From Chloroflexota bacterium (GTDB taxonomy: Bacteria; Chloroflexota; UBA11872): a stretch of DNA of 64,000 nucleotides. Under the pieces are notes generated by a model. The model had not been told where the DNA came from and made no database searches. It saw nothing but the letters and a program-made list of their open reading frames with translations. The position numbers were made by a program, and so were the translations under genes. Shown here one piece after another: positions 24,003 to 53,816 of the stretch (the first letter of the stretch is position 1; every line of letters starts with the position of its first letter). Location: NCBI GenBank assembly GCA_026707285.1, contig JAPOXD010000034.1, positions 3,807 through 67,806 on the forward strand. Direction: 5' to 3'.

Positions 24003-24070
24003 CCGCCCGCCAAGCCGCCAGAGGGCCGGCAGCGGCGATCGGCTGCGACCTGGGCGGCGAGTCACGGCCG

Positions 24071-34498: not shown

Positions 34499-35572
34499 CC
34501 AGGAGACCGCCGGCACCACCGCTGCGGCCAGCAGCGCCCAAGCGCCAGTGAGGACGGCCAAGGCCGTCGCCACATCAATTGCATCCTGGGTTACCGCCGC
34601 CGCGGCCGCACCGCCGAGCGGCACCGGCGCCAAGTACCAGTGGCGCACCGCCGTGACTGCCGCCTGCCAAAGGGCGCGCACGACGCTCGCCGCGCTGGCG
34701 ACTGCCACTCTCGGCGCTGTGATTAGGATCACCCCGGCGCCAACCAGCACCAGGATCGGGTATGCCACCAGTGCGGCCATGCCGGTCGGCGTCAGCCCGC
34801 GCAGCACACCGATCGGCACACCCGCATCCAGCGGCACACTTAGGTGAATCACCGCCACAAACAGCCAGATCGCCAGCGCGGTCAGACCGATCAGTGCGGT
34901 GACTGCGGCTACGAGGCGCCCGTAGAGGCGCGCCAGCAGCACGGTCGTCATCGCGCCGCCCAGCGCCCCGAGCACTGCCACACCAGCCGCCACGGCCACC
35001 GTCCATCCCTCAATCGCGCCCACCACGGCTTCCAGATGTCGCACCGGCGGCACTCGCTGGAACATCCGGTGGCCCAACGCCAAGAAGCCCCGCAGCGGCT
35101 CCCCCATGATCGTCAGTTGGGTCCGCGCGGTGGCCTCTCCGATGTCGGCGCCCCGCAGCAGCACGCCACCCCCCGGCGCCTCCAACACCCGCACCGCCAG
35201 GCGGTAGCTCGCCCCATCCGTCGGCACCGCAAACGTAGCCACGTACTCCCGCATCCCCTGCCCGGTCAGCCGCAGCCGGTCCGCCCAAAGCACCAGCTCA
35301 CCACGCTCTAGCCGTACCTCCACCAGGGCCGGCCCCACCACATTCCCTGTCGGCTGCGCCTCAAATCCCACGAACAGCTCCGGACCCGCCTCCGGTCGAA
35401 GCTCCTGGCTCAGGCTCCATCCCGGCAGCAATGGTCCAATGCCGAACGGCTCGCCCTGAACCCCGCCAACGATCAGCGGCCCCGCCGGCCAGCTCAGCGC
35501 CGCCACCGCACTGAGAACGGCCAACACCGCCCAAACGAGCGGGGCAATCGGGCGTCGCCGCACCATCGTCAT
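34454..35572 (-). CDS. companion membrane protein of family-B gene B1
   Basis: 372 aa from MTMVRRRP. Its ATG overlaps the upstream stop (ATGA at 35569-35572). Has an N-terminal TM, the PFGIGPLLPGWSLSQ motif, and a C-terminal multi-TM region. Confidence 0.5.
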   Translation of the reverse strand: MTMVRRRPIAPLVWAVLAVLSAVAALSWPAGPLIVGGVQGEPFGIGPLLPGWSLSQELRPEAGPELFVGFEAQPTGNVVGPALVEVRLERGELVLWADRLRLTGQGMREYVATFAVPTDGASYRLAVRVLEAPGGGVLLRGADIGEATARTQLTIMGEPLRGFLALGHRMFQRVPPVRHLEAVVGAIEGWTVAVAAGVAVLGALGGAMTTVLLARLYGRLVAAVTALIGLTALAIWLFVAVIHLSVPLDAGVPIGVLRGLTPTGMAALVAYPILVLVGAGVILITAPRVAVASAASVVRALWQAAVTAVRHWYLAPVPLGGAAAAAVTQDAIDVATALAVLTGAWALLAAAVVPAVSWLRGRRLADEEVLER

Positions 35573-38500
35573 CGCCGCCACCGTTGGCGCGACACCGGCG
35601 CCCATCCGATCACGATCATGCTGAACAGAACGACGAGGTTGGTCATCAATATCCAAAAATAGCCCGCGTTCGGCGTGAAGGTGACCGTCAGCTCATCTCC
35701 AGCCGCCAATTCCGCGAACCAGCCGTTGAAATGCCCGTCGAGCACCACATGACGCTCCTTGCTCACTTCTTCCCCATTGACGTGCAGCACCCAGCGTGGG
35801 TCGAACCGCTCGTCAAGCCGCACCAGCCGTTCCCCCGCCTCCCCCGAATACTCTGCCGAGGCCCAGCCGCGTTCGTCTCCCGTGAGGGACAGCGCACCAC
35901 CTCCGGCGGTGGTTTGCTGTCCCTCATGCGCGAGGATTACGGACAGGCCATGCGGCAACGGCGACGCCTCCACCCGCAGCAACTCGAACCGGAGACCCGG
36001 CAGTCCCTTGCGGATGTGGGCGACATCGAGCGTCGCCACGGACGCTCCGGGATCAAGCGGGACCTCGACTCGCACCTCACGGTCTACCTGATAGGCCTCT
36101 TCGCGCTGAAGCGTGTAGGTGATGTTTGGATACAACTGTTCGCCGATCAGGTGGACGCCGTCGACTCCGGTGTCAACCCGACCGACAAAGGCAACGGTTC
36201 GGCCGTCGGAAGGCACGGTGGCTTCCACGCGCACCGCGCCGTCGCACACCGCCGAGTCACACGCCTGAAAGCCCTCAGCCGCCAGCGGTTGGTGAGTGAC
36301 GCTGACAACCGGCTCGGGCGGCGGCGAGCCCCGCAGCACCAGCCGGTGCGGGCCCGCATCGAGTGTGACCACCCCGGTGAGAATGTCGAAGCCGGCCTCG
36401 GTCTTCGCACGCTCCAGCGGAAGCGGCGCACCGTCGATGGCGAGCGTCGGCTCGAGACCGGGGTGGGCGGCGAGGCGAACCGAATACGTGCCGGAGCGGG
36501 CCAGCCGGAAGTTGCGCTCGCCGCCGGTGGTCCCGAGGTCCGAAAGCACGGTGTAGACCGGCAGCTGGTCAAGCGCCCGCTCCCCCGCCCGCTCGGCAGC
36601 TTCGATTGCCGCCGACGTGAACAGCCCCAGTTGCGAAACCGCATTGAGGCCAAGACCGTCGGATCTGATTTCCACGACGTGCTGGCCGGCGCCGCTCGTC
36701 GGCGCCGCCACCCGCGTCCAGCGATAGCCGTAGCCCGCCGCTTCCCGCGTTTCAATCCGTGCAATGAACTGACCGTTGAGCGAAACCGCAAGGGCGCTTC
36801 CCTCGGGGCTCACGAAGTGGCGGATCCATAGCTCCCTGGTCGCTCCAGTTGTGTCCACGGTGACTGTCAAAGCCACACCGTCGGCGCGCGTCAGGAGCCC
36901 GCGCGTCATGTCCGCGATCTCGGGATCGGCATACCACCAGGCATTCTTGTAGGGGGCCACCCAGTCCAACGTGGCGTCGGGAAGCTCTGGCCACACCTGA
37001 TCCGCCGGACTCACCAGCGCGCCCTCGGGCAGATAGTTAGCCGTCAGGTCCAGCGGATCCGCTCCCAGCCAAACCTCGGAGGCGGCGTGCACGGCGCCGC
37101 CCGGAGCACCATCAATGCCCGCCACGCCCAATTGGCCGCTGGCGGTGGTGACCTTGGCCGGGTCGTCGAACATGTGCCAAGCCGTGACGAGCGGGCGCAA
37201 CGAGGGCGACCCAACAAGAATCCGCACGGGCAGGCTCAGCCGTTGAGCCGGCAGCGTCGTGACCTCGTAAAGCTCAACCTCACCCACCGATAGGTCATCG
37301 AGTCGACGCAGGCCGGGCTGTTGCGCCAGCGCCAGCCGCGGGCGTGGCTGGCGCTCTTGCAATGCCAGCCACGGTTCGCCCGTCGCCTGAATGAAGCCGG
37401 CGTGCGCGCTCACCCAGTGCGGGTCGAGCATGACGTTCCGAAAGCGTCCATGCGCCAGGAGGCGATCAATGGGATACCGGTTAGGGCCATAGAACCCCTG
37501 ATTGAGCGTGGCGATATATGGGCCGTTGAGCGTGGAGGACGCCCCGCCCCAGATCGAACGCTTGGGCGGCTGCAGAACGGGCGGCGGATTGCCCTGGCTG
37601 GAGTTTTGCCCGGTGCGGCTCTCGTAACTGCTCGGCCAAAACATGGGCAAGTGGACCATGCGATCGTTGTGGGGGAGAGCCCGCAGGTTGTCGACGACGG
37701 CGACCGTGTCGGCATCGAATCGGTAGGTGCGCAGGTGACCCGCGAGGTCTCCGCTCCAGAACGGGAGCGTGCTCCCGGCAATCACGGCGCCCACAAAGAC
37801 ATTGCCCGCCGTTCGTTGCAGCGCGGGCGGCCGCGCCACGAGGTGGGCAACCGTTTGCCCCACCAGCAAAGCCAGCAGCAGCCCGGCTGCAGCGGTGAGA
37901 TAGCGGATGTTTCGGAAGATCGCGCCCATCAGCGTGGCGTCAACTCCATCCTGAATGACGGAGAACGGCTCGTTGAACCCCTTGCCGATCAGCACCAACG
38001 CAAGGAACCCGAGCAAGCCCACCATCGCCTGCTGTCGCGCCGGTCCACGCAGCAGGACCGGAGCCGCAAGCGCCAGACCGGTCAGCATGCCGCGGGCAAT
38101 GAGCCGGATGCCACTGACCGGAGCCAGCGGGCCCACCGGATCTTGCGAGTAGTTGTAGGGCGCGCCGGTCAGCGTCAGCGCTTCCGCGAACGTCGGCGCC
38201 GCCCCCTTGATCCACTGCGCGGCAGCTTCGATGCTCCAGGCGGACATGACCTGGTTGGCCGAGGGCACCACGATGAGCTGCCAGGAAATGAAGGCGATGG
38301 CCTGATGCAACAGAATCACGCTCAGGCCCATCGCCGCCACAATCCCCAAGCGCCGCAGCCGCTGGCCGCGCGAGCCGGAGGCGGTGAAGGCTCGGAAGAG
38401 CGCATAGATGCCAACGAGGCCGGTTACGACGAAAGCCATATGGATCGAAGCCGCGGCCAGCCCGATCCACAGGCTGCCGCGAACGAAGCCGCGGCCACTC

Positions 38501-39096
38501 GGCACCCGATCGAACACCTCGTGCGCCACCTGCACCGCTTTGGGAAGAAACGCCACGCCCAGAAGCAGGCCGAAGTAGCCAGCGACGAAGGAATCGAGGA
38601 AGAACGGCGTAGTCATATAGACGGTTGACGCCGAGAAAGCCCCCGGCCGACCCATACCTAGACGCTTGGCCGCCTGGTACATGAACACGCCACCCAGGGC
38701 GATGAAGATGATCGAGATACGGGACGTGAGCCAGCCATCCACGCCGGGGAGGAGCGTGAGGCCTCCCAGAAGGAGCATGAGGTACTGGCTCATCGCCCGC
38801 TCTTCCTCGGACGAACCAAAGAAGTTCGTCTGCCAGGCCGACAGGCGATCGATAGCGAATTCGGTGTTCTGCCAGTCGGTCGGCGGAATGGTCCAGTCGT
38901 CGCGCAGCCCGAGGTAGTCCGGGTTGAAGATCACGCCGCGGTGCCAGATGAGCACCAGCAGCAGAATGGCGATGTAGGCAGCCGCGTCCGGGTGGCGCGC
39001 GATCAATTGCTTGGCCGACGCAAGGGCACGCCGCGCACCCGGGAGAGACGGTGAGCGAACGCCCGGCTCCGCCGTGGAATCGAGACTAACGCTCAC
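35569..39096 (-). CDS. family-B polytopic membrane protein B1 (1175 aa; putative GT-C-like glycosyltransferase)
   Basis: About 13 TM helices in the first ~430 aa. An acidic motif LRDDW sits in the long first extracytoplasmic loop. A ~700-aa extracytoplasmic domain and a C-terminal TM anchor follow. Roughly 80% identical to B2. Confidence 0.65.
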   Translation of the reverse strand: MSVSLDSTAEPGVRSPSLPGARRALASAKQLIARHPDAAAYIAILLLVLIWHRGVIFNPDYLGLRDDWTIPPTDWQNTEFAIDRLSAWQTNFFGSSEEERAMSQYLMLLLGGLTLLPGVDGWLTSRISIIFIALGGVFMYQAAKRLGMGRPGAFSASTVYMTTPFFLDSFVAGYFGLLLGVAFLPKAVQVAHEVFDRVPSGRGFVRGSLWIGLAAASIHMAFVVTGLVGIYALFRAFTASGSRGQRLRRLGIVAAMGLSVILLHQAIAFISWQLIVVPSANQVMSAWSIEAAAQWIKGAAPTFAEALTLTGAPYNYSQDPVGPLAPVSGIRLIARGMLTGLALAAPVLLRGPARQQAMVGLLGFLALVLIGKGFNEPFSVIQDGVDATLMGAIFRNIRYLTAAAGLLLALLVGQTVAHLVARPPALQRTAGNVFVGAVIAGSTLPFWSGDLAGHLRTYRFDADTVAVVDNLRALPHNDRMVHLPMFWPSSYESRTGQNSSQGNPPPVLQPPKRSIWGGASSTLNGPYIATLNQGFYGPNRYPIDRLLAHGRFRNVMLDPHWVSAHAGFIQATGEPWLALQERQPRPRLALAQQPGLRRLDDLSVGEVELYEVTTLPAQRLSLPVRILVGSPSLRPLVTAWHMFDDPAKVTTASGQLGVAGIDGAPGGAVHAASEVWLGADPLDLTANYLPEGALVSPADQVWPELPDATLDWVAPYKNAWWYADPEIADMTRGLLTRADGVALTVTVDTTGATRELWIRHFVSPEGSALAVSLNGQFIARIETREAAGYGYRWTRVAAPTSGAGQHVVEIRSDGLGLNAVSQLGLFTSAAIEAAERAGERALDQLPVYTVLSDLGTTGGERNFRLARSGTYSVRLAAHPGLEPTLAIDGAPLPLERAKTEAGFDILTGVVTLDAGPHRLVLRGSPPPEPVVSVTHQPLAAEGFQACDSAVCDGAVRVEATVPSDGRTVAFVGRVDTGVDGVHLIGEQLYPNITYTLQREEAYQVDREVRVEVPLDPGASVATLDVAHIRKGLPGLRFELLRVEASPLPHGLSVILAHEGQQTTAGGGALSLTGDERGWASAEYSGEAGERLVRLDERFDPRWVLHVNGEEVSKERHVVLDGHFNGWFAELAAGDELTVTFTPNAGYFWILMTNLVVLFSMIVIGWAPVSRQRWRR

Positions 39097-39218: not shown

Positions 39219-39956
39219 CTACTCGGGCTTCGCCACGATGTGATATTCGGGCCCGTAGGGAGCCGGGGAGGATTCGCAGTGGAATCCGAGTGCGCCAAGT
39301 CGCGCAGTGGTGATGCCAGCCAATGCCTCGGAGTGAGCTTCGATCACCAAGGTCGGTCGGTGCTCGCGCAAGGTAGCCGCCGCTCCCCGAAGGACCTCAA
39401 GCTCAAGCCCTTCAACGTCAATTTTGATCAGCGACGGCGGCCGGAACTCATGGCTGAGATGGTCGATCGTTGTGGAAGTCACGGCAGCGTCGGGGACTCT
39501 CGACGAGGGTTCCGAGAGCTCGGCGACGGCGGCCTTGCGCACGACCGTGATGTGACCGAAGCCATTGAGCGCGGCCTGTCCTTCGGTTTCGGCGGCGTTC
39601 GCTGGATCCGGCTCGATCGCGACGACCAGCCCCTCCGGCCCGACGGCGCGAGCGCCCAAGAGGCTGTGAAAACCGCTGTGCGACCCAACGTCAAAGAACG
39701 TCTCCCCGGGTGAGAGACCTTCGACAATTGACTGCTGGACCACCGGTTCGAACGTCCCGAGCCAATACTCGGCCACGCCGTTTCGTTTGGAACGCCGCCA
39801 TCGCAAGCCCCTGGCGTGGCCCAGGTGGACCACAGTCTCGCTGCCATCACGATGGAGCGTGAGGATGCGCAGCACGACCGACCGCAAGAGTCGGTGGCGC
39901 ACGATCCAGGTCCGATGGGGCGCAGCCCAGCGGAGAATTTGGGTCAACACAAGCAC
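39219..39956 (-). CDS. FkbM-family methyltransferase
   Basis: 245 aa with the FkbM motif FFDVGSHSGFHSLL. Confidence 0.7.
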   Translation of the reverse strand: MLVLTQILRWAAPHRTWIVRHRLLRSVVLRILTLHRDGSETVVHLGHARGLRWRRSKRNGVAEYWLGTFEPVVQQSIVEGLSPGETFFDVGSHSGFHSLLGARAVGPEGLVVAIEPDPANAAETEGQAALNGFGHITVVRKAAVAELSEPSSRVPDAAVTSTTIDHLSHEFRPPSLIKIDVEGLELEVLRGAAATLREHRPTLVIEAHSEALAGITTARLGALGFHCESSPAPYGPEYHIVAKPE

Positions 39957-40168: not shown

Positions 40169-43100
40169 TCACCGACGCCACCACCGGCGTGGCGCCGGCG
40201 CCCAGGCAACCACAATCATTGCCACCAAGAAGCCCAGGTTCGCCACGAGTATCCAGAAGTAGCCGATGTTTGGCGTGAAGGTGACCGTCACCTCGTCTCC
40301 GGCCGCCAGATCCACGAACCAGCCGTTGAAGTGCCCATCGAGCACCACGTGACGCGCCGCGCTCACTTGGTCGCCGTTGACGTGCAACACCCACCGCGGA
40401 TCAAACCGCTCGTCCAGCCGCACCAGCCGCTCATTCGCCTCGCCTGTGTACGTGGCCGCCGCCCAGCCGCGCTCGTCGCCCGTCAGGACCAGGTCGCCAC
40501 GGCCCGGAGCGGCTCGCCGCCGCTCGTCGGCCAGCACCACGGTTAGGCCATGCGGCAACGGCGATATCGCCACCTCCAGCAACTCAAACTCCAGGCCGGG
40601 CAGCTGCTCGTACAAATGCGCGACATCGAGGGTGGCGGTGCCCGAGCCCGGATCGAGCGGCACCTCGACTCGCACGAGGCGGTTGTGCTGTCCGGCCTCC
40701 ACACGATGGCGTTCGCGCGTGATTTCGGGATAGACCTGGACGCCGCTGGCGTAGGCGTCGTCGGCGCCCGCAGTGACGCGGCCTAGAAAGGAGACCGTGC
40801 GCCCGTCGGACGGCACGTTGGCTTCCACGCGCACCGGGCCCCCGCATACGTCGGTCTCGCAGGGTTGAAACCCCTCCGCCTCCAGCGTGTGGTGGGTCAC
40901 GCTGACGACCGGCGCGGGCGGCGGCGGCGCGCGCAGGGTCAGGCGATGCGCGCCGGGCGCAAGATCCGCCACCCCCTCGAGGATGTCGTAGCCTGCCTCG
41001 GTCCTCACGCGCTCCAGCGGCACTTCCGCGCCATTGATCGCCAACGTCGGGTGCACGTGCGGCGGGGCCGCCAGCCGCACCGTGTACGCCCCGGCCCGTG
41101 CGAGCCGGAACGTACGCTCGCCGTCAGTCGTTCTCAGGTCCGGCAGCACGGTGAACACGGGCAACCGCGACAGCGCCTGCGTCGCCTCCCGCTCGGCGGC
41201 CGCAATCTCTGCCGTCGTCAGCAGGCCCAACTGCGACACAGCGTTGAGACCAGGGCCGTCGCTTCGAACCTCCACGACTCGCTCGCCTGGGCCGCTCGTC
41301 GGCGCCTCCACCCGCGTCCAGCGATAGCCGTAGTCCGCGGCCTCGCGCGTCACAACTCGCGCCACCGGTTGGCCATCGAGCATGATTTCGAGCGCCCCGC
41401 CTTCCGGGCTCACGAAGTGGCGGACCCAGAGCTCACTGGTCGCGCCGGGCGAATCGACGGCGACCGTAAATGCTGCGCCGTCGGCTCGGGTCAGGAGTCC
41501 GCGGGTCATGTCCGCGATCTCGGGATCCGCATACCACCAGGCGTTCTTATAGGGCGCTACCCATTCCCGCGTGGCGTCCGGGACCTCCGGCCACACCTGG
41601 TCCGCCGGACTCACCAGCGCGCGCTCGGGCAGATAGTTGACTGTCAGGTCCAGCGGATCCGCCCCCAGCCAGATCTCCGAAGCGGCGCGAACAGCGCCGC
41701 CCGCAGCCCCGGTGATTCCTCGAACGCCCACCTCGCCGCCGGTGAGCGTCACGGATCTTGCATCGCTGAACATGTGCCAGGCCGTGACGAGCGGACGCAG
41801 CGAGGGCGACCCGACGAGAATCCGCTCGGGAATGCCCAGCCGTTGCGCCGGGGGCGTCACGACGTCGTACAGCTCAACTTCACCCGCGGACAAGTTGTCA
41901 AGGTGGCGCAGTCCGGGTTGTTGCACCAGCGCGAGCCGCGGGCGCGGGCGCTGCTCTTGCGACGCCAGCCACGGCTCACCGGTTGCCAAGATCAGGCCGG
42001 CGGGCGCGCTCACCCAGTGCGGATCGAGCAGAACATTCCGAATCCGGCCAAACGCCAGCAGGCGGTCGATGGGATACCTGCTGGGGCCGTAGAGCCCCTG
42101 ATTGAGCGTGGCGAAATAGGGCCCATTGAGCGTCGAGGACGCCGAGCCCGAGATCGAGCGCTTGGGCGGCTGCACGACCGGCGGGGGGTTGCCGCGGCCG
42201 GAGGAATGGCCGGTGCGGCTCTCGTAGCTGCTCGGCCAGAACATTGGCACGTGCAACATCCGGTCTTCGTGGGGCAGCGCGCGCAGGCTGTCCAGCACCG
42301 CAACCGTATCCGGGTCAATCCTGTACGGGCGAAGGTGGCCGCCGAGGTCGCCGCTCCAAAACGGAAGAGTGCTTAGCGCCGCCAGGACGCCAATCAGAAC
42401 GCCGGCCGCGGCCCGTGGCAGCTCCAATGGCCGCGCGGCGAGGTGGGCCACCGTTTGCCCTACCAGCAGGGCCAGCAGCAGCCCGGCCCCGACGGTGAGA
42501 TAGCGGACATTCCTGAAGATCGCGCCGATCAACGTGCTGTCGAGCACATCCTGAATGACGGGCAGCGGCTCGTTGAAGCCCTTGCCGATTAGCACCAGCA
42601 CGATGAACCCGAGCAGCGCCATCACCGCCTGCCGCCGGGCCGGCCCGCGCAGCAGAACCGGGGCCGCGAGCGCCAGGCCGGCGAGCATGCCGCGGGCAAC
42701 GAGCCCGACGCCACTGACGTGGGCGAGGGGACCCTCGGGACTCTGGGAATAGTTGTAGGGGCTGCCGGTCAGGGTGAGGGCTTCGGCGAGCGTCGGCGCC
42801 GTTCCCTTGATCCATTGGGCGGCGGCTTCAATGCTCCAGGCCGACATGACCTCGTTGGCCGAGGGCACCACGAGGAGTTGCCAAACGATAAAGGCGATCG
42901 CCGGATGCAGGAGGACGACGCTGAGCCCCATGGCGGCGACGAGCCCGAGGCGCCGCAGGCGCTGCTCGCGAGAGCCCGACGCCGTGAACGTGCGGAAGAG
43001 CGCGTAGGCGCCGACCATTGCGGTCGTGATGAAGGTGAGATGTATTGAGCTGGCGGCCAACCCGATCCAGAGGCTGCCGCGGACAAAGCCGCGCACGCCC

Positions 43101-43696
43101 GGCGCGCGATCAAAGGTCTCGTGCGCAACTTGCACCGCCTTTGGCAGCAGCGCGACGCCGATGAGCATGGCGGCATAGCCGCTGATGAACGCGTCGAGAA
43201 AAAAAGGCGTCGTCATGTAGACGACGGCGGCCACGAAGGACCCCGGCCGGCCCATGCCCAGGCGCTTCGCCGCCTGGTACATGAAGACGCCGGCGAGCGC
43301 GAGGAAGACGATCGATACGCGCGACGTCAGCCACCCGTCGACCCCCGGAAGCAGCACCAACGCTCCCAACGTGAGCTGCAGGTATTGGGTCATCGCCCGC
43401 TCTTCCTCGGACTGCCCGAAGTAGTTGGTCTGCCAGGCCGAGAGTCGATCGAGGGCGAAGTCGGTGTTCTGCCAGGCGGCCGGCGGCGTGGTCCAGTCGT
43501 CGCGCAGCCCCAGGTAGCCGGAGTCGAAAATCAGGCCCCGGTGCCAGATCACCACCAGCAGCAGGATGGCCACATAGGCAGTCGCGTCCGGGTGGCGGTC
43601 GATCAGCCGCCCAATCCACGCGGATGCCCGTTTCAGCGCCCCCGCCGGCAGAGAACGACCGCCGTGCTCCGCAGCCGGAGCTGCGCTTACGCGCAT
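40169..43696 (-). CDS. family-B polytopic membrane protein B2 (1175 aa; putative GT-C-like glycosyltransferase)
   Basis: Same length and architecture as B1, with conserved LRDDW, AWWYADPEIADMTRGLLTRADG and a C-terminal anchor. Confidence 0.65.
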   Translation of the reverse strand: MRVSAAPAAEHGGRSLPAGALKRASAWIGRLIDRHPDATAYVAILLLVVIWHRGLIFDSGYLGLRDDWTTPPAAWQNTDFALDRLSAWQTNYFGQSEEERAMTQYLQLTLGALVLLPGVDGWLTSRVSIVFLALAGVFMYQAAKRLGMGRPGSFVAAVVYMTTPFFLDAFISGYAAMLIGVALLPKAVQVAHETFDRAPGVRGFVRGSLWIGLAASSIHLTFITTAMVGAYALFRTFTASGSREQRLRRLGLVAAMGLSVVLLHPAIAFIVWQLLVVPSANEVMSAWSIEAAAQWIKGTAPTLAEALTLTGSPYNYSQSPEGPLAHVSGVGLVARGMLAGLALAAPVLLRGPARRQAVMALLGFIVLVLIGKGFNEPLPVIQDVLDSTLIGAIFRNVRYLTVGAGLLLALLVGQTVAHLAARPLELPRAAAGVLIGVLAALSTLPFWSGDLGGHLRPYRIDPDTVAVLDSLRALPHEDRMLHVPMFWPSSYESRTGHSSGRGNPPPVVQPPKRSISGSASSTLNGPYFATLNQGLYGPSRYPIDRLLAFGRIRNVLLDPHWVSAPAGLILATGEPWLASQEQRPRPRLALVQQPGLRHLDNLSAGEVELYDVVTPPAQRLGIPERILVGSPSLRPLVTAWHMFSDARSVTLTGGEVGVRGITGAAGGAVRAASEIWLGADPLDLTVNYLPERALVSPADQVWPEVPDATREWVAPYKNAWWYADPEIADMTRGLLTRADGAAFTVAVDSPGATSELWVRHFVSPEGGALEIMLDGQPVARVVTREAADYGYRWTRVEAPTSGPGERVVEVRSDGPGLNAVSQLGLLTTAEIAAAEREATQALSRLPVFTVLPDLRTTDGERTFRLARAGAYTVRLAAPPHVHPTLAINGAEVPLERVRTEAGYDILEGVADLAPGAHRLTLRAPPPPAPVVSVTHHTLEAEGFQPCETDVCGGPVRVEANVPSDGRTVSFLGRVTAGADDAYASGVQVYPEITRERHRVEAGQHNRLVRVEVPLDPGSGTATLDVAHLYEQLPGLEFELLEVAISPLPHGLTVVLADERRRAAPGRGDLVLTGDERGWAAATYTGEANERLVRLDERFDPRWVLHVNGDQVSAARHVVLDGHFNGWFVDLAAGDEVTVTFTPNIGYFWILVANLGFLVAMIVVAWAPAPRRWWRR

Positions 43697-45191: not shown

Positions 45192-46460
45192 CTAGCGGTC
45201 CGCCATCGTCGGAGGCTGCGTGGGCGGCGGGCCGGCCGACGCGCGCGACTTCGGCGATGCTGTCAGCCAAGGGTCCTCACCGGGCGACTCGCCGTCAGCA
45301 ATATCTCCCATGAGCAGTTGTAGCTCTCGCTCCGCCACAAGCGACCAGTCAAGCTCACTCACCCGGGCCAAGCCGCGCTTGGCAAGCTCATGACAGCGGG
45401 GCGTGTCGTCCAAGAGCGAAAGAATAGCGCCGGCAAGCGCCGGGATGTCCCCCTCGGACACGGCGTGGTAGGCATCGCCCCAGACCTCCAGGAGTTCCGG
45501 CAGGTCGTAGGCAACCACCGGAGTGCCAAGGGCCATGGCCTCGCCGATGGCGATTGACCAGTTCTCCTCGTGCGACGGGAGCACAAAGACTCGGGAGGCG
45601 CTTATGCACTGGTCTTTTTCTTCGTTGGTCACGGACCCCGGAAGATCGACGTTCTGTTCGAGGCCGTAGTGGCGAACGCGTTCCCGAACCAAATCCTGAT
45701 CGGGACCGTCACCCATCATCGCTAGCCTGGCGCGTGGACGCTGCGCGACGACAATCACCCACGCCTCAAGAAGACCAAAGACGCCCTTTGAGGCGGCGGT
45801 GCGCCCAACCGATGTGACGTCATACCGAGGCTGCCCCCGGCTCGGAGCGACCGCACGCAAGCCGGCCAAGTCCACACCGCAGGCCACGGCTGCGACCCGG
45901 CGCATCGGGTATCGATTGCGACGAAGCTGGTGCGCAGTCGCACGGGAGACGGCGAGCGTGCAGCTGGCAAAGAAGGCGGCAAAAAACAAAGAGAACCGGT
46001 GGGCGAGGAGAAACGCAAGCGCCTGATACCAGCGTGGTCCCTGACGGCGCCAAAACCGCCAAACCGGTACCAAATGCACGACAACGCCCAAGCGCACGCG
46101 CCGCCACCGCTGCAGCTTGAGCATGACGCCGGGTAACACGTCGTAGGGCTGATCATGCGCGGTAACGATCAGGTCTGGACGGAGGCGCCAGAGCGATCGA
46201 GGAAAAAACAAGCAAACGGCGATCGAGTGCAAGACGATCCACCAACGCCCTTCGCCGACCCGCCACCGCGTCATATGTCTCGTCGTTGTGAGGCCCCATT
46301 GCTCGCAGGTGTTTCCGGCCTGCGCACTCCCCATGAGGTGGATATCGTGCCCGGCTCGCTGCCATTGCTTCGCGATTTCGATGATCCTGACGCACCCGCC
46401 ATCGATCTGCTCGCGAACCAAACCGTTCATGATCAGCAGGATTCGCAATGGCGCAGGCAC
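45192..46460 (-). CDS. GT4-family glycosyltransferase
   Basis: 422 aa. Has the E-x7-E region (ENWSIAIGEAMALGTPVVAY). It is a paralog of 31139..32305. Confidence 0.8.
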   Translation of the reverse strand: MPAPLRILLIMNGLVREQIDGGCVRIIEIAKQWQRAGHDIHLMGSAQAGNTCEQWGLTTTRHMTRWRVGEGRWWIVLHSIAVCLFFPRSLWRLRPDLIVTAHDQPYDVLPGVMLKLQRWRRVRLGVVVHLVPVWRFWRRQGPRWYQALAFLLAHRFSLFFAAFFASCTLAVSRATAHQLRRNRYPMRRVAAVACGVDLAGLRAVAPSRGQPRYDVTSVGRTAASKGVFGLLEAWVIVVAQRPRARLAMMGDGPDQDLVRERVRHYGLEQNVDLPGSVTNEEKDQCISASRVFVLPSHEENWSIAIGEAMALGTPVVAYDLPELLEVWGDAYHAVSEGDIPALAGAILSLLDDTPRCHELAKRGLARVSELDWSLVAERELQLLMGDIADGESPGEDPWLTASPKSRASAGPPPTQPPTMADR

Positions 46461-46532: not shown

Positions 46533-47255
46533 TCAAAGAAACGCGACCGGTCCCAGCAGCGGCCCCATGATCGTGGCCGCCGCAACTCCACACCCCACCG
46601 TCGACGCGACGAGCCGACCAAAGCGCGCCTGTTCCAGCGTTGACCAGGCGATGCCGCCGGCCGCCACGCCCGCCATTACGGCAAGGACGACGCCGAGGGC
46701 TAGATAGAATGGGGCTTCGCTGGCTTGGGTTCGCAAACGAGCGAGCGCGCCCGCGTGACCGGTAATCGAAAATGCCAGATCGACATCGCGAGGGGCGTAA
46801 CCGAGGCGGTCGACGAATTGCCCATCCACATACGCATTGTTCCGAGTCGCGGCGACGTACAGCGCCGGCGAGCCGGACTCGGGAGCCACGATGCGGAGCG
46901 CCAAGGTCTCGGGCGGCACGTCAATCGGGTCAAACGGGAGGCGAGTTGGCTGAGGGTCGGCGCTTAACGGTGCTTCGAAGACGGCCGAGCGTATGGGCGG
47001 GCCGTCCAACGACCGCAGCAAGTGCGCCTCGGCGCGGGCCGGACGCGAGCCCTCGCTGCGAGTCCAAACGGTCATCGTCTCCACGACGCCTGAAGCAACG
47101 TCGATCGACTGGGTGACCGATCCGACGACCGGACCGAGTGAAAAAGCCGGTGACGGCAGGTTGCTCGGACCTGCGACCGGCACGCGCTCCTGTGCCACCA
47201 CAGCCGCCAAGGCCAGCGCCAACGCCGTCACAACCAGCCACGCGGCAACTCTCAC
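46533..47255 (-). CDS. companion membrane-anchored protein of family-A gene A2
   Basis: 240 aa from GTG (VRVAAWL). It overlaps the upstream stop (GTGA). Motif is PAFSLGPVVGSVTQSID. It is a paralog of 27153..27875. Confidence 0.55.
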   Translation of the reverse strand: MRVAAWLVVTALALALAAVVAQERVPVAGPSNLPSPAFSLGPVVGSVTQSIDVASGVVETMTVWTRSEGSRPARAEAHLLRSLDGPPIRSAVFEAPLSADPQPTRLPFDPIDVPPETLALRIVAPESGSPALYVAATRNNAYVDGQFVDRLGYAPRDVDLAFSITGHAGALARLRTQASEAPFYLALGVVLAVMAGVAAGGIAWSTLEQARFGRLVASTVGCGVAAATIMGPLLGPVAFL

Positions 47256-47570
47256 GAGTAGGCCCGAGGGCGCCACGGCAACTTCGGCCACGCCGACCAA
47301 ACAGCCCACGCAAGCAGCCCGGCCCACGTAATCGCGTGCCCCACGATGAGGGCGCGCTGTAGGCCGGATTCAAGCACCAGGGGTCCGGAGGCGCCGGGGC
47401 CCAGCTGCACGCTCAGCAAACCCAACTCGGAACGCTCAACGGTAGCTTCATGGCCGGGCAGCTGGGCGGTCCACAGAGGGTCCCAATACTCCTGGGTGAC
47501 GATTTCACGCGGCTCATCCGCACCTGGCGGCACGTCGATCACGAGGCGGTGCATGCCCTCGCGCCGCCAC
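47160..47570. repeat. near-identical duplicated block, copy 1 (3' end of A2 plus 5' end of its companion)
   Basis: About 400 bp that is near-identical to 49780-50190. The overlapping antisense ORF translations are identical except for 2 residues. Confidence 0.7.
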
Positions 47571-49396
47571 GAGAGCCCGGCTGGACCCGCCGGTCGACCC
47601 TCGTAGACCCACGGATAGGGAGGGGTCACGGTCCGAAAAACCTCGTGGGCGCCTTCAGTAATTTCGAGCTCCAAGCCGGTGGTCTGGCGCAGACGCCGCG
47701 CGAGGTCGCGACCGTAGGACGTTCCGGTGGGTACGAGCACCCGGGCCACGCCGTGATCGCGGAGGGTACGGTCGAGATTGGGAGAATCAGCCTTGAGCCA
47801 CGTCCAGAGACCGTGACCAACTAATGTATCGCTCGCCACATATGGTGTGGTGATCGAAAGGATCTCGATGCGGTGCAGGACACGGTTGTGCGACGACCAT
47901 TCGGGAAGGCGCTGATCCCAAATCGCCAGGAAGGTGCGCGTCGTGCCGTCGGCGTTGCGTCGGTCAAGCTCCGCCGGCACGGTGTGAAATGAGGCCGGGA
48001 AGCGTTCCGGTACATTCTGGGCCTTCTCGTCGAGCAGGGTCCAATTGATCCCAGGCAGCATGTAGGCCACAAGCCCGACGCCAATCGCGATGGTCTGCAT
48101 GGGGCCTAGGATCGGGAAGCTGCGAGGCGCGTCGCGCGTAAACACGACGGGGGCGAGGGCAATTCCCGGGATATAGGCGAGAGCCAACGAGCCCGAGAGC
48201 TTGTCCGGTTCGATGCCGACCCATCCGAACGGTGCGTCGGCCATCAGCGCCAAATATGTTGGGCGGGACGCTTCATCGAAGGTGGCTATCTGAAAGAGCG
48301 CCGTGACGCCGCCGACGACGACCGCATAGCCCAGCACCTGACGGTGATCCGGCAGGCGGCAAAGCCCCAGCAACAGCAATGCCGCGGGAATCATGCCTGC
48401 CAGACGCCAGCCTGGCAGCGCATCTGGAACCGACTGCTCTCGGAGCGACAGCAAGGATCTCTCGCCGGTGAGGGTGAGGGTGTTGTCGACCGATTTGCCG
48501 GACTGAATCACCGGCAGGGTGTCGCGTGTGGCGAGGTACATAGGCCCGGTCGGCGATCCGGCGATATTGGCGGTGATGTAGGGAACGAGGGTGAATGCGG
48601 CAAGAACGGTGTAGCCAATCAGGAATACCGCAGCGGTGAAGATGATCGGGCGCCGAGGGCCACGGGTCGTCACCAGGGAATAGACCAGCCACCCGGTACC
48701 CGTGAGCGCGCCAATCGCCATGTAGTGTGGCGAGGCCGAAATGGCGAACGCGAGAATTGCCGATGCTGCCAGCGCTCGCCGCACCCTGGCGCGGCGTGTT
48801 TGCGATCGTGTCGCCGAAACGATCAGGCCAAGGAACAGCGGGAGCATCAAAGCGCTCACCCAAACATGCAACTGCTCTGATCGCGCCAGGATCCACGGGT
48901 TGTGAACCCAGAACAGGCCGGCAAGCAGAAGACCGACACGGGCCGCGACCGGGTGCGCGGCGCGCATTTCCGGTCCAAGGAGCAACCGCGCGCCAAAGTG
49001 CCCGGCAAGGAACCCGAGCAGGTGCCAGCTCATCCAGTGGAACTTGCCCGCCACCTCGGTCGAGAGTCCAAATATCCAAACAATGAGACCCCAGGGAGCG
49101 TCCGCATACGTGCGTGACATGAAAACGAGATTGCTGCCACGCGAGGTGTCCCAAGCACCGATGAACTTCCGAAGCCATAGTTCCGCGGCAAACGGATACT
49201 CCCGATCCCCAAGAATGAGTTCGCCCGGCGTCGCCACCACGCGCCAAGCAAGCGCCATGGTGACCAGCAGTCCAAGCGCAATCCAAGCTGCGTCGTGAGC
49301 CACGACGCGCCGCGCACGCTCGGTCACGAACTCCAACCCCCCGAGCCTAGACCTGCACGCGAAGAGGCGTCCCGTTGCGGCGCCATACCCTTGCAA
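47252..49396 (-). CDS. family-A polytopic membrane protein A2 (putative GT-C-like glycosyltransferase)
   Basis: 714 aa from the TTG at 49396. The start is uncertain; a possible GTG lies at about 49330. Motifs are NPWILARSEQLHVWVSALMLPL and SPHYMAIG. Its last 105 aa are identical to A3. Confidence 0.6.
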   Translation of the reverse strand: MQGYGAATGRLFACRSRLGGLEFVTERARRVVAHDAAWIALGLLVTMALAWRVVATPGELILGDREYPFAAELWLRKFIGAWDTSRGSNLVFMSRTYADAPWGLIVWIFGLSTEVAGKFHWMSWHLLGFLAGHFGARLLLGPEMRAAHPVAARVGLLLAGLFWVHNPWILARSEQLHVWVSALMLPLFLGLIVSATRSQTRRARVRRALAASAILAFAISASPHYMAIGALTGTGWLVYSLVTTRGPRRPIIFTAAVFLIGYTVLAAFTLVPYITANIAGSPTGPMYLATRDTLPVIQSGKSVDNTLTLTGERSLLSLREQSVPDALPGWRLAGMIPAALLLLGLCRLPDHRQVLGYAVVVGGVTALFQIATFDEASRPTYLALMADAPFGWVGIEPDKLSGSLALAYIPGIALAPVVFTRDAPRSFPILGPMQTIAIGVGLVAYMLPGINWTLLDEKAQNVPERFPASFHTVPAELDRRNADGTTRTFLAIWDQRLPEWSSHNRVLHRIEILSITTPYVASDTLVGHGLWTWLKADSPNLDRTLRDHGVARVLVPTGTSYGRDLARRLRQTTGLELEITEGAHEVFRTVTPPYPWVYEGRPAGPAGLSWRREGMHRLVIDVPPGADEPREIVTQEYWDPLWTAQLPGHEATVERSELGLLSVQLGPGASGPLVLESGLQRALIVGHAITWAGLLAWAVWSAWPKLPWRPRAYS

Positions 49397-49626
49397 GCGG
49401 CGTGACGCTCATCAGCGAGGAAGCGTTAGATCGACAACGGCCCGAAACCTCAGGAAGGTCTGAACAAGCCCGTGAGCCCCGCCCAATCCGTTCGCCCCGT
49501 ATCAAGTACGGTCAAGCCCTGGGCGAAGTCGAAGGGCGTTCATGGTTGGGCAAACTTACCACGAAGGGATGGATGCCAAGGCCTTCCGACTTGCTCAGAG
49601 GCTCCCTAAGCGTAGGACTCCGATGC

Positions 49627-49878
49627 CTAGGAAAGCTGTGAAGAAGGCAGGGCTGAGGCGCCTGGGCGGACGCACGGCACGGTCTTGGGGCTGGGGAGGC
49701 CCGGTCGGACGGTCGGGGCCGCCGATCCAGGCCCCTGGGACCGCTGGCGGCCCCGCGCCGGGTGCAATGCGCCCACGTCAGGCGGGCTCGGACCTGCGAC
49801 GGGCACGCGCTCCTGTGCCACCACAGCCGCCAAGGCCAGCGCCAACGCCGTCACAACCAGCCACGCGGCAACTCTCAC
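49627..49878 (-). pseudogene. truncated remnant of companion gene downstream of A3
   Basis: The first ~30 codons (VRVAAWLVVTALALALAAVVAQERVPVAGPS) are identical to the A2 companion. It then diverges into non-homologous sequence and stops after 84 aa. Confidence 0.45.
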
Positions 49879-50190
49879 GAGTAGGCCCGAGGGCGCCACG
49901 GCAACTTCGGCCACGCCGACCAAACAGCCCACGCAAGCAGCCCGGCCCACGTAATCGCGTGCCCCACGATGAGGGCGCGCTGTAGGCCGGATTCAAGCAC
50001 CAGGGGTCCGGAGGCGCCGGGGCCCAGCTGCACGCTCAGCAAACCCAACTCGGAACGCTCAACGGTAGCTTCATGGCCGGGCAGCTGGGCGGTCCACAGA
50101 GGGTCCCAATACTCCTGGGTGACGATTTCACGCGGCTCATCCGCACCTGGCGGCACGTCGATCACGAGGCGGTGCATGCCCTCGCGCCGC
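49780..50190. repeat. near-identical duplicated block, copy 2 (3' end of A3 plus companion remnant)
   Basis: Near-identical to 47160-47570. Confidence 0.7.
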
Positions 50191-52034
50191 CACGGGAGTC
50201 CCGTCGGACCCGCCGGTCGACCCTCGTAGACCCACGGATAGGGGGGGTCCAGGGTCCGAAAAACCTCGTGATAGTCCTCGGCAAATTCGAGCTCCAAGCC
50301 ATCGGTCGTCCGCAGACGCTGCGCGGATTCTTGTCCGCGGGTCGTGTCCGTGGCCACCAGCACCCGCTCCACGCCATGGGCGCGCAAGACATCGCTTACG
50401 TTGGGTGCGCCACCTTCCAAGAGCGCCACAAGGCGGTTGCCAACCGGCAGATTGCTCACCGCATACGGCGTGATCACGGAGACGCGCTCGATCAAGGGCA
50501 GGACACGACCCTGCGACGACCATTCGGGAAGGCGCTGATCCCAGATCGCCAGGAGGGTGCGCGACGCCCAGTCGGCGTTGCGCCGGTCAATCTCCGCCGG
50601 CACGGTGTGAAATGAGGCTGGGAAGCGCTCGGGCACATGCTGCGCCCTCTCGTCGAGAAGCCCCCACTGGACCGCCGGCAGCATATAGATCGCCAGCGCG
50701 AGCCCCACGGCAGCCGTCTGGATCGCGCCCACAGCCGGCACGGTGCGGGGCGCGTGCCGGGTGAACATCACCGGTGCCAGGGCAATGCCTGGGAGATAGG
50801 CGAGCGCCAACACGCCGGTGAGCCTATCTGGACTCCTGAGCGCCCATCCGAACGGCGCATTGACCACAAAATCCAAGTACGCCGGGCGCGTTGCTTCAGC
50901 AAATGTGGCGATCTGAAACAGTGCCGTAAGGCCGCAGAGAATCGCGGAATACCCAAGCAGCAGTCGGTGGCTCGGCAGACGCAAGAGCGCAAGCGCCAGC
51001 AGCGCCACGGGCACAAAGGAGGCTATGCGCCATCCCGCGAGCGCGCTTGGCGTGGAAGGTCTGAAAAGCGAATCCCAGCCTTCGTGTCCGGTCAGCGCGA
51101 GGGTGTTGCTGAATGACAAGAACGGGTGTACTGCGGAGAGGTTTTCAATTCCAGATAAGTAGGTGGGACTTGTCGCCGATCCGCCGATGGTTGCGACGAC
51201 ATAAGGCACCAGGAAGAACGCGGCAAGGACGGCGTAACCGCCAATGAACACGGCGGCGGTAATCATGAGCGGGCGACGGCGACCGCGGGCCATCACGGTG
51301 GCATAGACAAACCAGCCGATGCCCGAGAGCACTCCAATTGCCATGTAATGCGGCGATGTCGAGACGACGAACGCGAGCGCGGCCGCTGCCGCCAACGCGT
51401 GTCGCACGCGGCCGCGCCGACTGTTTGAGCGTGCCGCGGATACTGCCAAGCCCACGACGAGCGGAAGCGCCATTGCACTCACGTGAACGTACAACTGGCC
51501 CCAGCGCCCAAGGCTCCAGGGGTTGATGGCCCAGAAGAGGCCCGCCAGCACAAGGCCAGCGCGGACGGCGACCGGGTGCGCAGCGCGCATCTCTGGTCCA
51601 ACCATCAACCGGGCGCCCACGTACCCGGCCAGGAAACCCAGGAGGTGCCAGCTCAGCCAGTGGAGTTTGCCCGCGGATTCCGACGAGAGACCAAGCACCT
51701 GGACTACAAAGCCCCAGGGAGCATCCACGTAGGTACGCACGATCGTGACGAGCGTGCTCCCAGACGAGGTGTCCCAGGCACTGATGAACCAACGAGTCCA
51801 GAACTCGTCAGCGAACGGATATCCGGCGTCCCACCGAGCAAGCTCGCCCGGCGTCGCCACGACGCGCCAGGCCACCGCGACAGCGATCAGCAGCCCTAGC
51901 GCGATCCAGGCCACATCGTGGGCCAAGACGCGCCGCGCAAGTTCGGCAAAGGACGCCGAATCCGGCGCCCAGTAACGCATCCGGAGGAATACTCTTGTGA
52001 AGCGCCCTCTCGCTTCAGGCGAGGTGACGCTCAT
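49875..52034 (-). CDS. family-A polytopic membrane protein A3 (putative GT-C-like glycosyltransferase)
   Basis: 719 aa. ATG at 52032-52034 (MSVTSPEARGRF). Motifs are NPWSLGRWGQLYVHVSAMALPL and SPHYMAIG. Confidence 0.65.
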   Translation of the reverse strand: MSVTSPEARGRFTRVFLRMRYWAPDSASFAELARRVLAHDVAWIALGLLIAVAVAWRVVATPGELARWDAGYPFADEFWTRWFISAWDTSSGSTLVTIVRTYVDAPWGFVVQVLGLSSESAGKLHWLSWHLLGFLAGYVGARLMVGPEMRAAHPVAVRAGLVLAGLFWAINPWSLGRWGQLYVHVSAMALPLVVGLAVSAARSNSRRGRVRHALAAAAALAFVVSTSPHYMAIGVLSGIGWFVYATVMARGRRRPLMITAAVFIGGYAVLAAFFLVPYVVATIGGSATSPTYLSGIENLSAVHPFLSFSNTLALTGHEGWDSLFRPSTPSALAGWRIASFVPVALLALALLRLPSHRLLLGYSAILCGLTALFQIATFAEATRPAYLDFVVNAPFGWALRSPDRLTGVLALAYLPGIALAPVMFTRHAPRTVPAVGAIQTAAVGLALAIYMLPAVQWGLLDERAQHVPERFPASFHTVPAEIDRRNADWASRTLLAIWDQRLPEWSSQGRVLPLIERVSVITPYAVSNLPVGNRLVALLEGGAPNVSDVLRAHGVERVLVATDTTRGQESAQRLRTTDGLELEFAEDYHEVFRTLDPPYPWVYEGRPAGPTGLPWRREGMHRLVIDVPPGADEPREIVTQEYWDPLWTAQLPGHEATVERSELGLLSVQLGPGASGPLVLESGLQRALIVGHAITWAGLLAWAVWSAWPKLPWRPRAYS

Positions 52035-52091: not shown

Positions 52092-53816
52092 CTAGCCGGC
52101 GCCAACAGCCGGCACCGCCTCGGGTGCGGCGGGTTCCAGCAAGCTGGCGTCGATCGGCGCGGTTGACCCGCCGGCGGTGAAGAGCCTGGCGGGAAGTTCG
52201 GCGACACCCGTGTCGACCGGTGCGGCGCCGGCGTCACCGCCCTCCAGCTGCCCCTTCCGAAAGTCGAGCATGTGGCCGACGATGTAGCGCGACCCGCGCA
52301 CCACATAGTAGCGGAAGTGGTCGCGGCTCTTGCCCGCATGCAGCAGCTTGCGGGTCACATAGCGCGGCGTGAGAAAGCTGGTGTAGAGCGACTGCACCAG
52401 CCCCATGATCTCCGGCGTGGGGATTGGCGACCGCAGCACGGGCTCTCGCATGTCGTAGCGTTCCCAGTGCTCCGGGCCGTCGAACCGGAGCCAGTCGTGC
52501 TCGCGCGCCTGGGCGTAGAGCTGAGTGCCCGGGTAGGGAATGACGATGGTGCCCTGAAGGGTATTGATCCAGCCGCGGTCGAAGGTCTCGCGCGTGAAGT
52601 CGATGGTCCGCTTGGCCTCCTCGAACGTCTCCCACGGGTAGCCGACCATGCACGTCACGTGGGGTTCCAGCCCGGCCTCGCTGGCCCACTTCACCGATTC
52701 CCACTGCTGGCGCACGGTCGTGCCCTTGTTGAGCAGATCGAGGGTGCGCTGATTGGCCGACTCGATGCCGTAGAGAATGAAGCGGAAGTTGCTGTCCCCC
52801 AGCATTTCGTATTCGGCCTGGGACAGGGCATCGGCGCGCATGTTGCAGCCCATCATCAGGACCTTGTGCAGACCGCGCTCGCGGAACCCGGTGCAAAAGT
52901 CGGTGAGCCAGCGCCCCGCGGGGAACGTGCCCGTGTCGTCGAACACTTCCTCGACGCCGAGATCGACGAGCTGCTCCAATTCGTCCAGATAGTCGTCAAC
53001 GGGCCTGACGGACCACGTAGGCAGCATGCTGGTCCAGGAGCAGAAGGTGCACCCGCCGCCGCCGCGCCGCGGCCCCCCGGGCACCCGCCGCCGCCACCAG
53101 CAGTCGGCGCTGGTTGAGCCGGTAGCCCAGCCGTAGGTGCCCTTCTTCAGGAAGTTGCCGTTGCGATAGGCGTAGAGCTCCCACTTGGCGAGCTGACGGT
53201 CGATATGCGGACGAACGGCTTCCCGGACCGGCGGATCGGGCTCTTCGCCGGAATTGACGATCTCGGTCTCGTCATGACGCCAAAACACGCCGCCTCCAAG
53301 GTCGTCGCGACCCTCCAGGAAGTCGGCGAGATTCAAGATGGCAAAGTCGAACTGGCCGCCCCGGATCACATAGTCGACGGGACAAAAGAGAAACGGCTCT
53401 TCGGGAAACGCGGTGACGTGGTCGCCCACCAGCGCGATGGTCATCTCGGGAAACCGCGCCTTGAGGTCGGCGATCGCGTGGTAGAGGGGCGGCGCGCTCG
53501 GCGTCTTGGTTTCGATCATCATCAGGTCGGGACACGCCAGTTCGACCTCGCGGCAGTAGGATTCCCAGTCCCACCCTTCGGCGATCCCATCCAGCCAGAC
53601 GGCCTCGTGGCCATGCCGTTGCAGGAGGGTGGCCGCCAGCGCGGGCAACACGGGAAAAATGACGGTGGCGTTGTCGCCGACGAAGCGGTTCAGCGCACCC
53701 ACGAGCCCATGGCCCTCGCTGCGGCCCGTCGAAAAGACCTGGTATTGCCGATTCTGACTGAGGAGCGGGATGCCCTTGGCGCTCTCGAACGGCGGAAAGC
53801 TGATGGCAACTCTCAC
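52092..53816 (-). CDS. B12-binding domain radical SAM protein (class B rSAM-like)
   Basis: 574 aa. N-terminal B12-binding-like domain (LVGDHVTAFPEE) followed by a radical SAM core. The Cys motif is atypical: C-x17-C-x2-C (ADCWWRRRVPGGPRRGGGGCTFC). Confidence 0.7.
   Translation of the reverse strand: MRVAISFPPFESAKGIPLLSQNRQYQVFSTGRSEGHGLVGALNRFVGDNATVIFPVLPALAATLLQRHGHEAVWLDGIAEGWDWESYCREVELACPDLMMIETKTPSAPPLYHAIADLKARFPEMTIALVGDHVTAFPEEPFLFCPVDYVIRGGQFDFAILNLADFLEGRDDLGGGVFWRHDETEIVNSGEEPDPPVREAVRPHIDRQLAKWELYAYRNGNFLKKGTYGWATGSTSADCWWRRRVPGGPRRGGGGCTFCSWTSMLPTWSVRPVDDYLDELEQLVDLGVEEVFDDTGTFPAGRWLTDFCTGFRERGLHKVLMMGCNMRADALSQAEYEMLGDSNFRFILYGIESANQRTLDLLNKGTTVRQQWESVKWASEAGLEPHVTCMVGYPWETFEEAKRTIDFTRETFDRGWINTLQGTIVIPYPGTQLYAQAREHDWLRFDGPEHWERYDMREPVLRSPIPTPEIMGLVQSLYTSFLTPRYVTRKLLHAGKSRDHFRYYVVRGSRYIVGHMLDFRKGQLEGGDAGAAPVDTGVAELPARLFTAGGSTAPIDASLLEPAAPEAVPAVGAG

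Follow-up and report, generated by a model that had tools for sequence, protein, structure and literature searches.

Probable Stacking of a Second GT-C Glycosyltransferase Cassette in a Cell-Envelope Glycan Locus of an Uncultured Chloroflexota Bacterium

Anatomy of the A2 and A3 Genes and Their Shared Block

In a 64,000-nucleotide (nt) stretch of contig JAPOXD010000034.1 (assembly GCA_026707285.1, positions 3,807 to 67,806; hereafter the window) from a Chloroflexota bacterium, two neighboring genes, A2 and A3, were found to end in almost the same sequence. Both are predicted to encode membrane glycosyltransferases of the GT-C fold. All genes of the locus discussed here are on the minus strand, and coordinates are window positions. 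A3 (49875..52034, 719 amino acids) represents the resident cassette type of the backbone, and A2 (47252..49396, an open reading frame (ORF) of 714 amino acids) is a chimeric gene, in which an A2-type membrane body is joined to an A3-type C-terminal module. A2 is followed by an intact companion gene (46533..47255, 240 amino acids), whose GTG start overlaps the A2 stop codon as GTGA.

The shared block is a direct repeat (47163-47571 and 49786-50194, offset 2623), in which 408 of 409 bases match in the window record and the longest exact run is 393 nt. The sole mismatch (47178/49801) is synonymous in the companion frame. In both genes the block takes in the stop codon and the last 105 codons, which encode the same residues (WRREG... 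to ...RAYS), and it continues over 31 codons of the companion, beginning at a GTG start that in either copy overlaps the stop as GTGA. One copy, R_b (47163..47571), consists of the 3′ end of A2 and the beginning of the intact companion, into which it runs unbroken; this companion is of the A3 lineage and is 90-98% identical to that of the related locus L002. The other copy, R_a (49786..50194), consists of the 3′ end of A3 and the beginning of a truncated companion. In this remnant (49627..49878), 31 genuine codons give way to 52 unrelated ones before a stop is reached; it was not called by gene callers in any record. The sequence-only reading had described a near-identical block of about 400 bp, with 105 identical codons in A2 and A3, some 30 shared companion codons, and a companion copy breaking off into unrelated sequence after A3, all of which was borne out and is refined here to 409 bp with one mismatch.

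Outside the block, A2 and A3 are clearly diverged, as had also been noted: their ungapped identity is 69.5% over 47572-49323 at the nucleotide level and 67% at the amino acid level. The synonymous divergence (dS) of the bodies is 0.90 and the nonsynonymous divergence (dN) is 0.29, in contrast to a dS of 0 in the block. The identity of the block in a local alignment, the check that had been proposed, is therefore far above that of the rest of the gene pair and far beyond chance. The head-to-tail register remains constant, and a novel junction is located at 49785/49786. The 3′ boundary of the block is sharp, with total loss of homology, and the 5′ boundary is graded. In the transition zone (47572..47660), which encodes a PPYPWVYE motif, identity to A3 decreases stepwise (100%, 92%, 82%), and an 11-nt stretch of A2-like states lies between A3-identical runs. 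A second short A3-like patch was found inside A2 (47889..47940), encoding ...LAIWDQRLPEWSS. It contains only two mismatches to the A3 of the window and includes a 32-nt exact run, in contrast to many mismatches and a 3-nt indel relative to the A2-type loci L003 and L005.

Upstream of A2, 53 nt (49397..49449) are of A2 type, as homology to the A2-type loci L003 and L004 begins at 49449. An ancestral ATG start (at 49412, giving MSVT... as in A3 and protein P0002) is out of frame and runs into a stop after 21 codons, so that A2 must start further in. The likely start is a GTG at 49303, resulting in a protein of 683 amino acids, which is also the form called by NCBI. Another caller gives 668 amino acids, a length that would cut the first transmembrane helix (TM1). 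The model is of low confidence for the lost N-terminal extension, which is variable.

An orphan 335-nt spacer (49450..49785, no strand assigned) separates this upstream region from the illegitimate joint at 49785/49786. It is not homologous to the region upstream of A3; no homologs were detected by blastn or tblastx in the window or among over 30 related loci, and scanning JGI metagenomes for exact 40-mers did not reveal where it came from. Comparison with Rfam gave a chance-level match only and no convincing RNA family. The spacer has a GC content of 67%, its first ~100 nt appear very GC-rich by eye, and it carries short, weak, imperfect inverted repeats (49526-49540/49578-49592 and 49714-49723/49746-49755). 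A promoter and terminator scan of 46.4-52.4 kb revealed nothing above shuffled expectation. For a plus-strand ORF of 147 amino acids across the joint, a look-up for independent spanning contigs found no record.

Predicted Structure of A2, A3, and the Companion

No family in Pfam-A or NCBIfam was detected at E ≤ 0.01 for A2, A3, or A1, a third gene of this kind in the window. An AlphaFold2 model of A2 was built from a 20-sequence alignment (mean predicted local distance difference test (pLDDT) 75.7, predicted template modeling score (pTM) 0.80). The model contains a polytopic membrane domain and then an alpha/beta periplasmic domain, and ends in a seven-stranded beta-sandwich (residues ~608-677) and a final membrane helix (678-705). 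Since both of the latter elements fall there, the block would encode exactly the beta-sandwich and the C-terminal helix. Foldseek comparison of the model with PDB returned exclusively GT-C enzymes, all with probability 1.0, including AftD (E = 5.8e-9), yeast and human STT3 (5e-6), ArnT (1.4e-4), AftA (3.5e-4), AglB, and PglB. In the same alignment, D64 is invariant and E59 nearly so, and both follow directly after the model helix 35-55; D64 would thus be the acidic residue that GT-C enzymes have in the first extracytoplasmic loop after TM1. On the strength of the modeled fold, A2 and A3 are predicted GT-C glycosyltransferases.

The family has 45 members among 5.8 billion clusters, and all named members belong to metagenome-assembled genomes (MAGs) of Chloroflexota. 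One periplasmic segment of A2 (residues ~505-560, 47721-47900) is hypervariable, with ~48% identity to each of the other members, A2-type orthologs included, which implies that the donor lineage of A2 is absent from databases. In A3 and its ortholog P0010, this segment is 88% conserved.

The mycobacterial arabinosyltransferases AftD (PDB 6W98), AftA, and EmbA/EmbB/EmbC share the GT-C fold and its layout, with periplasmic domains, a beta-sandwich among them, behind a polytopic membrane domain. The emb genes are also found as tandem paralogs. AftD is the best structural match of the A2 model, yet sequence identity to the PDB matches is only 11-15%. Unlike the mycobacterial enzymes, A2 and A3 end in an extra C-terminal membrane helix and are coupled to a jelly-roll membrane companion.

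The companions have no match in Pfam or NCBIfam. An AlphaFold2 model (pLDDT 74) suggested an N-terminal membrane helix, a jelly-roll domain, and two C-terminal membrane helices. By Foldseek, the jelly roll weakly resembles CBM36, CBM6, and CBM4 (E = 1e-4 to 4e-3).

One Slot and Alternative Cassettes in Related Genomes

A2 and A3 lie between two flanking genes, a B12-type radical-SAM gene upstream (52092..53816, PF04055) and a GT4 glycosyltransferase gene downstream (45192..46460, PF00534 and PF13439), the latter being syntenic in all relatives. GT2 and GT4 transferases, the B12-type radical-SAM enzyme, methyltransferases, and a carbamoyltransferase are found in the neighborhood. The locus is one for glycan assembly, producing a cell-envelope glycan, in an uncultured, sponge-associated Chloroflexota bacterium.

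We compared the slot between the two flanking genes in seven related loci, which is a small sampling. Five of them (L002, L003, L004, L005, and L036) contain one GT-C gene and one companion region in the slot, and the partial loci L019 and L035 likewise show a single GT-C gene. Only the organism of the window has two. This comparison with related genomes had been proposed by the sequence-only reading, whose suggestion of a rearranging locus agrees with a tandem in the window versus single genes in all seven relatives. Three types occupy the slot: the A3 type in L002 and L036, the A2 type in L003, L004, L005, and L019, and a third type in L035. The slot surroundings also appear to have been repeatedly rearranged, as in the A2-type relatives L003 and L004 the companion is separated from the full GT4 gene by a 117-codon GT4 fragment (L003 13354-13704, L004 8029-8379) and a TylF-type methyltransferase.

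The backbone of the window is close to that of L002. The radical-SAM protein is 92-98% identical to those of L002, L004, L005, and L019 (96-98% for L002, L005, and L019) and 82% identical to that of L003. From this gene through A3 to the end of the block, the window is 92% identical to L002 at the nucleotide level, and this similarity stops exactly at 49786. The body of A3 is 94-95% identical to P0010 of L002, and the companion behind A2 is 91% identical to the L002 companion at the amino acid level.

A2 has a mixed ancestry. The body (49220-48020) shares 75-95% identity with the A2-type locus L003, versus 53-83% with A3 types, and residues 45-455 are 76-86% identical to P0002 versus 56-67% to A3 types. 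Residues 608-714, on the other hand, are 99% identical to the A3 of the window and 91% to P0010, versus 65-70% to A2-type orthologs. The tail of A2 therefore groups with A3 types and its body with A2 types, the phylogenetic incongruence expected of a conversion tract. Because the block, the companion, and the flanks are all of the A3 lineage, A2 is best described as a foreign body on a resident tail. Moreover, since the seven related loci hold a single gene, A2 and A3 appear to be alternative cassette alleles stacked in one lineage rather than old paralogs that arose in situ.

The locus of the third type is informative about the 5′ edge of the block. The L035 body is 60-70% identical to either of the other types, and from the equivalent of ~47660 onward it becomes 90-95% identical to the window and L002. 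The switch takes place at ~47660-47600, and the similarity to the window/L002 flank extends through the tail and the companion and beyond. Because this genome switches at the same place, the 5′ edge of the block coincides with a recurrent, population-wide intragenic recombination boundary at PPYPWVYE.

Among 19 GT-C/companion gene pairs, identity of the companion tracks that of the GT-C tail (Spearman 0.84) better than that of the body (0.67). Tail and body are discordant by 13 points or more in 15 pairs, and in each of these the companion sides with the tail, whichever of the two is the more similar. Thus, tail and companion behave as one inherited unit. The GT-C body, which comprises the membrane domain and the first periplasmic domain, appears as a hypervariable cassette of at least three types, and the last ~107 codons together with the companion appear as a more conserved 3′ unit. 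A scan for the family in JGI metagenomes retrieved two loci only, which were distant or partial.

This organization resembles cassette-type surface-polysaccharide loci such as those for O-antigen and capsule, which likewise have a hypervariable central gene, conserved flanks, and mosaic ancestry, and in which different types fill the same slot across related genomes as they do here. Unlike in those loci, the downstream recombination boundary is intragenic, at a domain boundary of the GT-C protein, and the incoming type was added beside the resident instead of replacing it.

Identity of the Two Copies in Different Assemblies

The window corresponds to scaffold_203 of ENA record ERZ23497053 (BioSample SAMN13943207). 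We compared it with a second record, ENA ERZ27276916 k141_114216, a contig of 378 kb with a MEGAHIT-style name. Over 41.4 kb (17872-59258) the two are identical except at seven positions, all of which are transitions located in R_a (49882, 49990, 50029, 50034, 50046, 50066, and 50103). In the k141 record the two block copies are 401/409 identical, the eighth difference being that at 49801, which is shared with the window; the other assembly therefore resolves eight copy-specific differences versus one in the window.

When these sites were polarized by L002, R_a of the k141 record was found to have five private derived states and R_b three, the latter all nonsynonymous (giving T, Q, and S). Private derived states in each copy imply that both diverged after the duplication, by ~2%; for comparison, the window and L002 differ by ~8% overall. 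The R_a of the window carries the R_b states at all seven sites, including the private changes of R_b. The longest run shared by the two copies in the k141 record is 107 nt, and as this is shorter than k = 141, the k141 contig can legitimately pass through both copies without meeting a branch.

For any k up to 77, shared k-mers flank the seven sites on either side, and they enclose no other difference. The retained difference at 49801 sits 15 nt from the edge of the repeat and cannot form a bubble. Bubble removal and paired-end repeat threading in de Bruijn assemblers would leave such a signature. Because the seven sites are exactly those that a short-k assembler would collapse, we consider it quite likely that the perfect identity of the block in the window is artifactual, with copy-specific variants collapsed by a short-k, repeat-resolving assembler. 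The case would follow the pattern of assembler repeat collapse: the window departs from the k = 141 contig solely where shared k-mers enclose a copy-specific variant, and the variant next to the repeat edge survives. The true identity of the block is probably ~98% rather than 100%. An assembly collapse, raised by the sequence-only reading, thus probably explains the last two percent of identity and does not explain the tandem arrangement.

The protein encoded by A3 in the NCBI MAG (OXG43_09370-80) is the same as in the window. Other sequencing runs carry 100% identical flanking sequence, so that the k141 and window assemblies may stem from different samples. Logan contigs L029, L030, and L031, from three other runs (47620/47863 to 45123/45463), are 100% identical to the A2-side copy. 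These contigs cover the A2 side only, and each begins at or before a shared run of 38 nt (47620). At least one of these sequencing runs also contains A3 (L034, ERR5005007).

Collapse would also fit metaSPAdes 3.9, the assembler of the sponge-microbiome study (PMC8163846) to which the name code ROBB21 of the window record may point. Several observations weigh on the other side. The record name is otherwise in the style of SPIRE, which reports MEGAHIT defaults, and a unitig from that assembler would not be expected to run through an exact repeat of 393 nt. The version with identical copies is found in two of three assemblies. The seven-site difference could also be a genuine conversion polymorphism, should the two assemblies come from different samples. 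In addition, the three Logan contigs (k = 31) pass unbroken through the block at the 3′ fork and into the companion; low coverage of the very GC-rich beginning of the spacer, or population heterogeneity, may possibly account for this.

Origin of the Duplicated Block

From the anatomy of the block, the single-copy relatives, the chimeric A2, the breakpoint shared with another genome, and the difference between assemblies, we infer the order and mechanism of the recombination events as well as the role of the assembler. We favor, as the rather likely history, a duplication of the flank by the addition of a second cassette, with divergence of the copies afterward and collapse by the assembler. 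The slot would normally hold one GT-C gene and a translationally coupled jelly-roll membrane protein of 240 amino acids. A second cassette, composed of an A2-type body, the 53 nt native to its upstream side, and the orphan 335-nt spacer, would have been added downstream of the resident A3. For the right end of this cassette, recombination would have taken place in the conserved PPYPWVYE region with which the 3′ unit begins, and the left end would have been joined illegitimately 31 codons into the companion. A 409-bp stretch of the 3′ unit would consequently be present twice, truncated behind A3 and complete behind the A2 body, and the two copies would later have gained the five and three private substitutions seen in the k141 assembly.

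According to this reading, the block is the conserved 3′ flank, which became duplicated because the second cassette was stacked behind the resident A3, and its near-identity would reflect a fairly recent flank duplication and not homogenization of old paralogs. As a structural variant of a surface-glycan locus, the duplication itself is genuine and confined to one lineage, but of an ordinary kind.

Some points weigh against a single addition event. The origin of the spacer was not found in our searches, so the left joint cannot be reconstructed. Duplication of host sequence in one step would need two chromosome copies or a circular intermediate, and alternatives to a one-step event need an extra conversion step. 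Integration of a circle of the Campbell type was considered and rejected; it is less parsimonious and predicts an A2-type tail behind A3, which is not seen. Furthermore, the patchy 5′ edge and the patch at 47889-47940 seem to fit gene conversion better than a single crossover, suggesting that some conversion between A2 and A3 also occurred.

Gene conversion might even account for the whole block. In such a history the tandem would be long-standing, its 3′ ends and companion starts would have been repeatedly homogenized, with A3 donating to A2 at an earlier time, and a fresh R_b-to-R_a tract of at least 222 bp would separate the two assemblies. We regard this as unlikely, although it has more in its favor than the remaining alternatives. 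The tract groups by genome and not by gene type, and its 5′ edge is patchy and accompanied by the second A3-like patch. The seven differences between the otherwise identical assemblies are clustered, and at each of them the window has the state of the paralog, including the private changes of R_b; as identical sequence occurs in other runs, the assemblies need not share a sample. However, the tandem occurs in none of the seven related loci, so that long co-residence is unsupported, and no genome with a tandem and type-specific tails was seen in this small sampling. The companion and everything downstream are also of the A3 lineage, for which a duplicated flank suffices, and the converted sites would coincide exactly with those an assembler can collapse. 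Concerted evolution of tandem bacterial paralogs likewise produces near-identical tracts in diverged neighbors and clustering by genome, but here one end of the tract is an illegitimate joint and the relatives lack a second copy. Hence, the conversion tract offered as one explanation by the sequence-only reading may act on the block, in view of the seven-site difference and the patchy edge, but is not needed to explain it.

It is improbable that the tandem is an assembly chimera of two co-existing strains with one GT-C gene each. All sources are short-read metagenome assemblies, A2 and A3 types are allelic in other genomes, and the Logan data show an in-fork at 47620 and no 3′ out-fork, which fits two single-copy strains with the same tail and companion. 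Nevertheless, three assemblies agree on the order of the genes, and no 141-mer is shared by the copies of the k141 record, so the path A3-R_a-spacer-A2-R_b-companion is unbranched. Reads must contain the junction of companion codon 31 with the spacer, the sequence upstream of A2 is the spacer and not the radical-SAM gene, and no strain single-nucleotide polymorphisms were found elsewhere in 41 kb.

Finally, a recent tandem duplication of the whole gene-plus-companion unit, after which the bodies diverged rapidly and one companion was deleted, had been the other explanation offered by the sequence-only reading and would fit the head-to-tail repeat with its constant offset of 2623 across the gene pair, but we give it next to no credence, as it is contradicted by a body dS of 0.90 versus 0 in the block and by the phylogenetic split between the two: each body is much closer to a gene of another genome (P0002 and P0010) than to its neighbor, A2 and A3 are closest relatives in the block only and not over the whole unit, and the spacer is not homologous to the region upstream of A3.

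Implications for Surface-Glycan Diversification

The locus illustrates how the genes for a surface glycan diversify in an uncultured symbiont. In this unannotated GT-C family, whole catalytic bodies are exchanged at a domain boundary, and in the window two of them are stacked, with tail and partner staying together. This pattern gives a pointer to the binding site of the partner and to natural chimera junctions at which exchange is tolerated; that the cassette boundary lies inside a gene is a corollary of modest interest. A tentative extension, which we think possible rather than likely, is that the C-terminal module and the jelly-roll companion form a co-evolving docking unit, onto which bodies are exchanged as cassettes. 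The two bodies of the window would then share one companion, possibly as a pair in the manner of EmbA-EmbB, and selection for compatibility would keep the module homogeneous. The locus also offers a caution for metagenome scans, in that paralog tracts recorded as 100% identical can come from repeat collapse, which a comparison of alternative public assemblies can expose without reads.

Other Features of the Window

A1 and its own companion (27153-29947, minus strand) form the third GT-C unit, which is ~65% identical at the nucleotide level and has no identical tract. Located ~20 kb away from the variable slot, this unit occurs in almost every related genome. Body and tail are discordant in the A1 family as well; for example, between L011 and L012 the body is 87% identical, the tail 64%, and the companion 68%. 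An ORF of 918 amino acids (called as 897) at 21309-24065 (minus strand) encodes a distant GT-C relative that is ~26% identical to A3.

A second stacked pair of this locus was observed at 35569-39096 and 40169-43696 (minus strand, offset 4600), encoding two proteins of 1175 amino acids whose genes are 75.7% identical at the nucleotide level. Their sequences have no match in Pfam, NCBIfam, or PDB. The pair was checked for a near-identical tract and none was found, identity being 59-88% per 100 nt. A Methyltransf_21 gene (39219-39902) lies between the two, and L002 holds a single gene of 1167 amino acids in the position of the pair. Stretches of ~77% identity within the window were also noted between two GT4 genes (45400-45595 and 31244-31440) and between 29-210 and 1387-1568.

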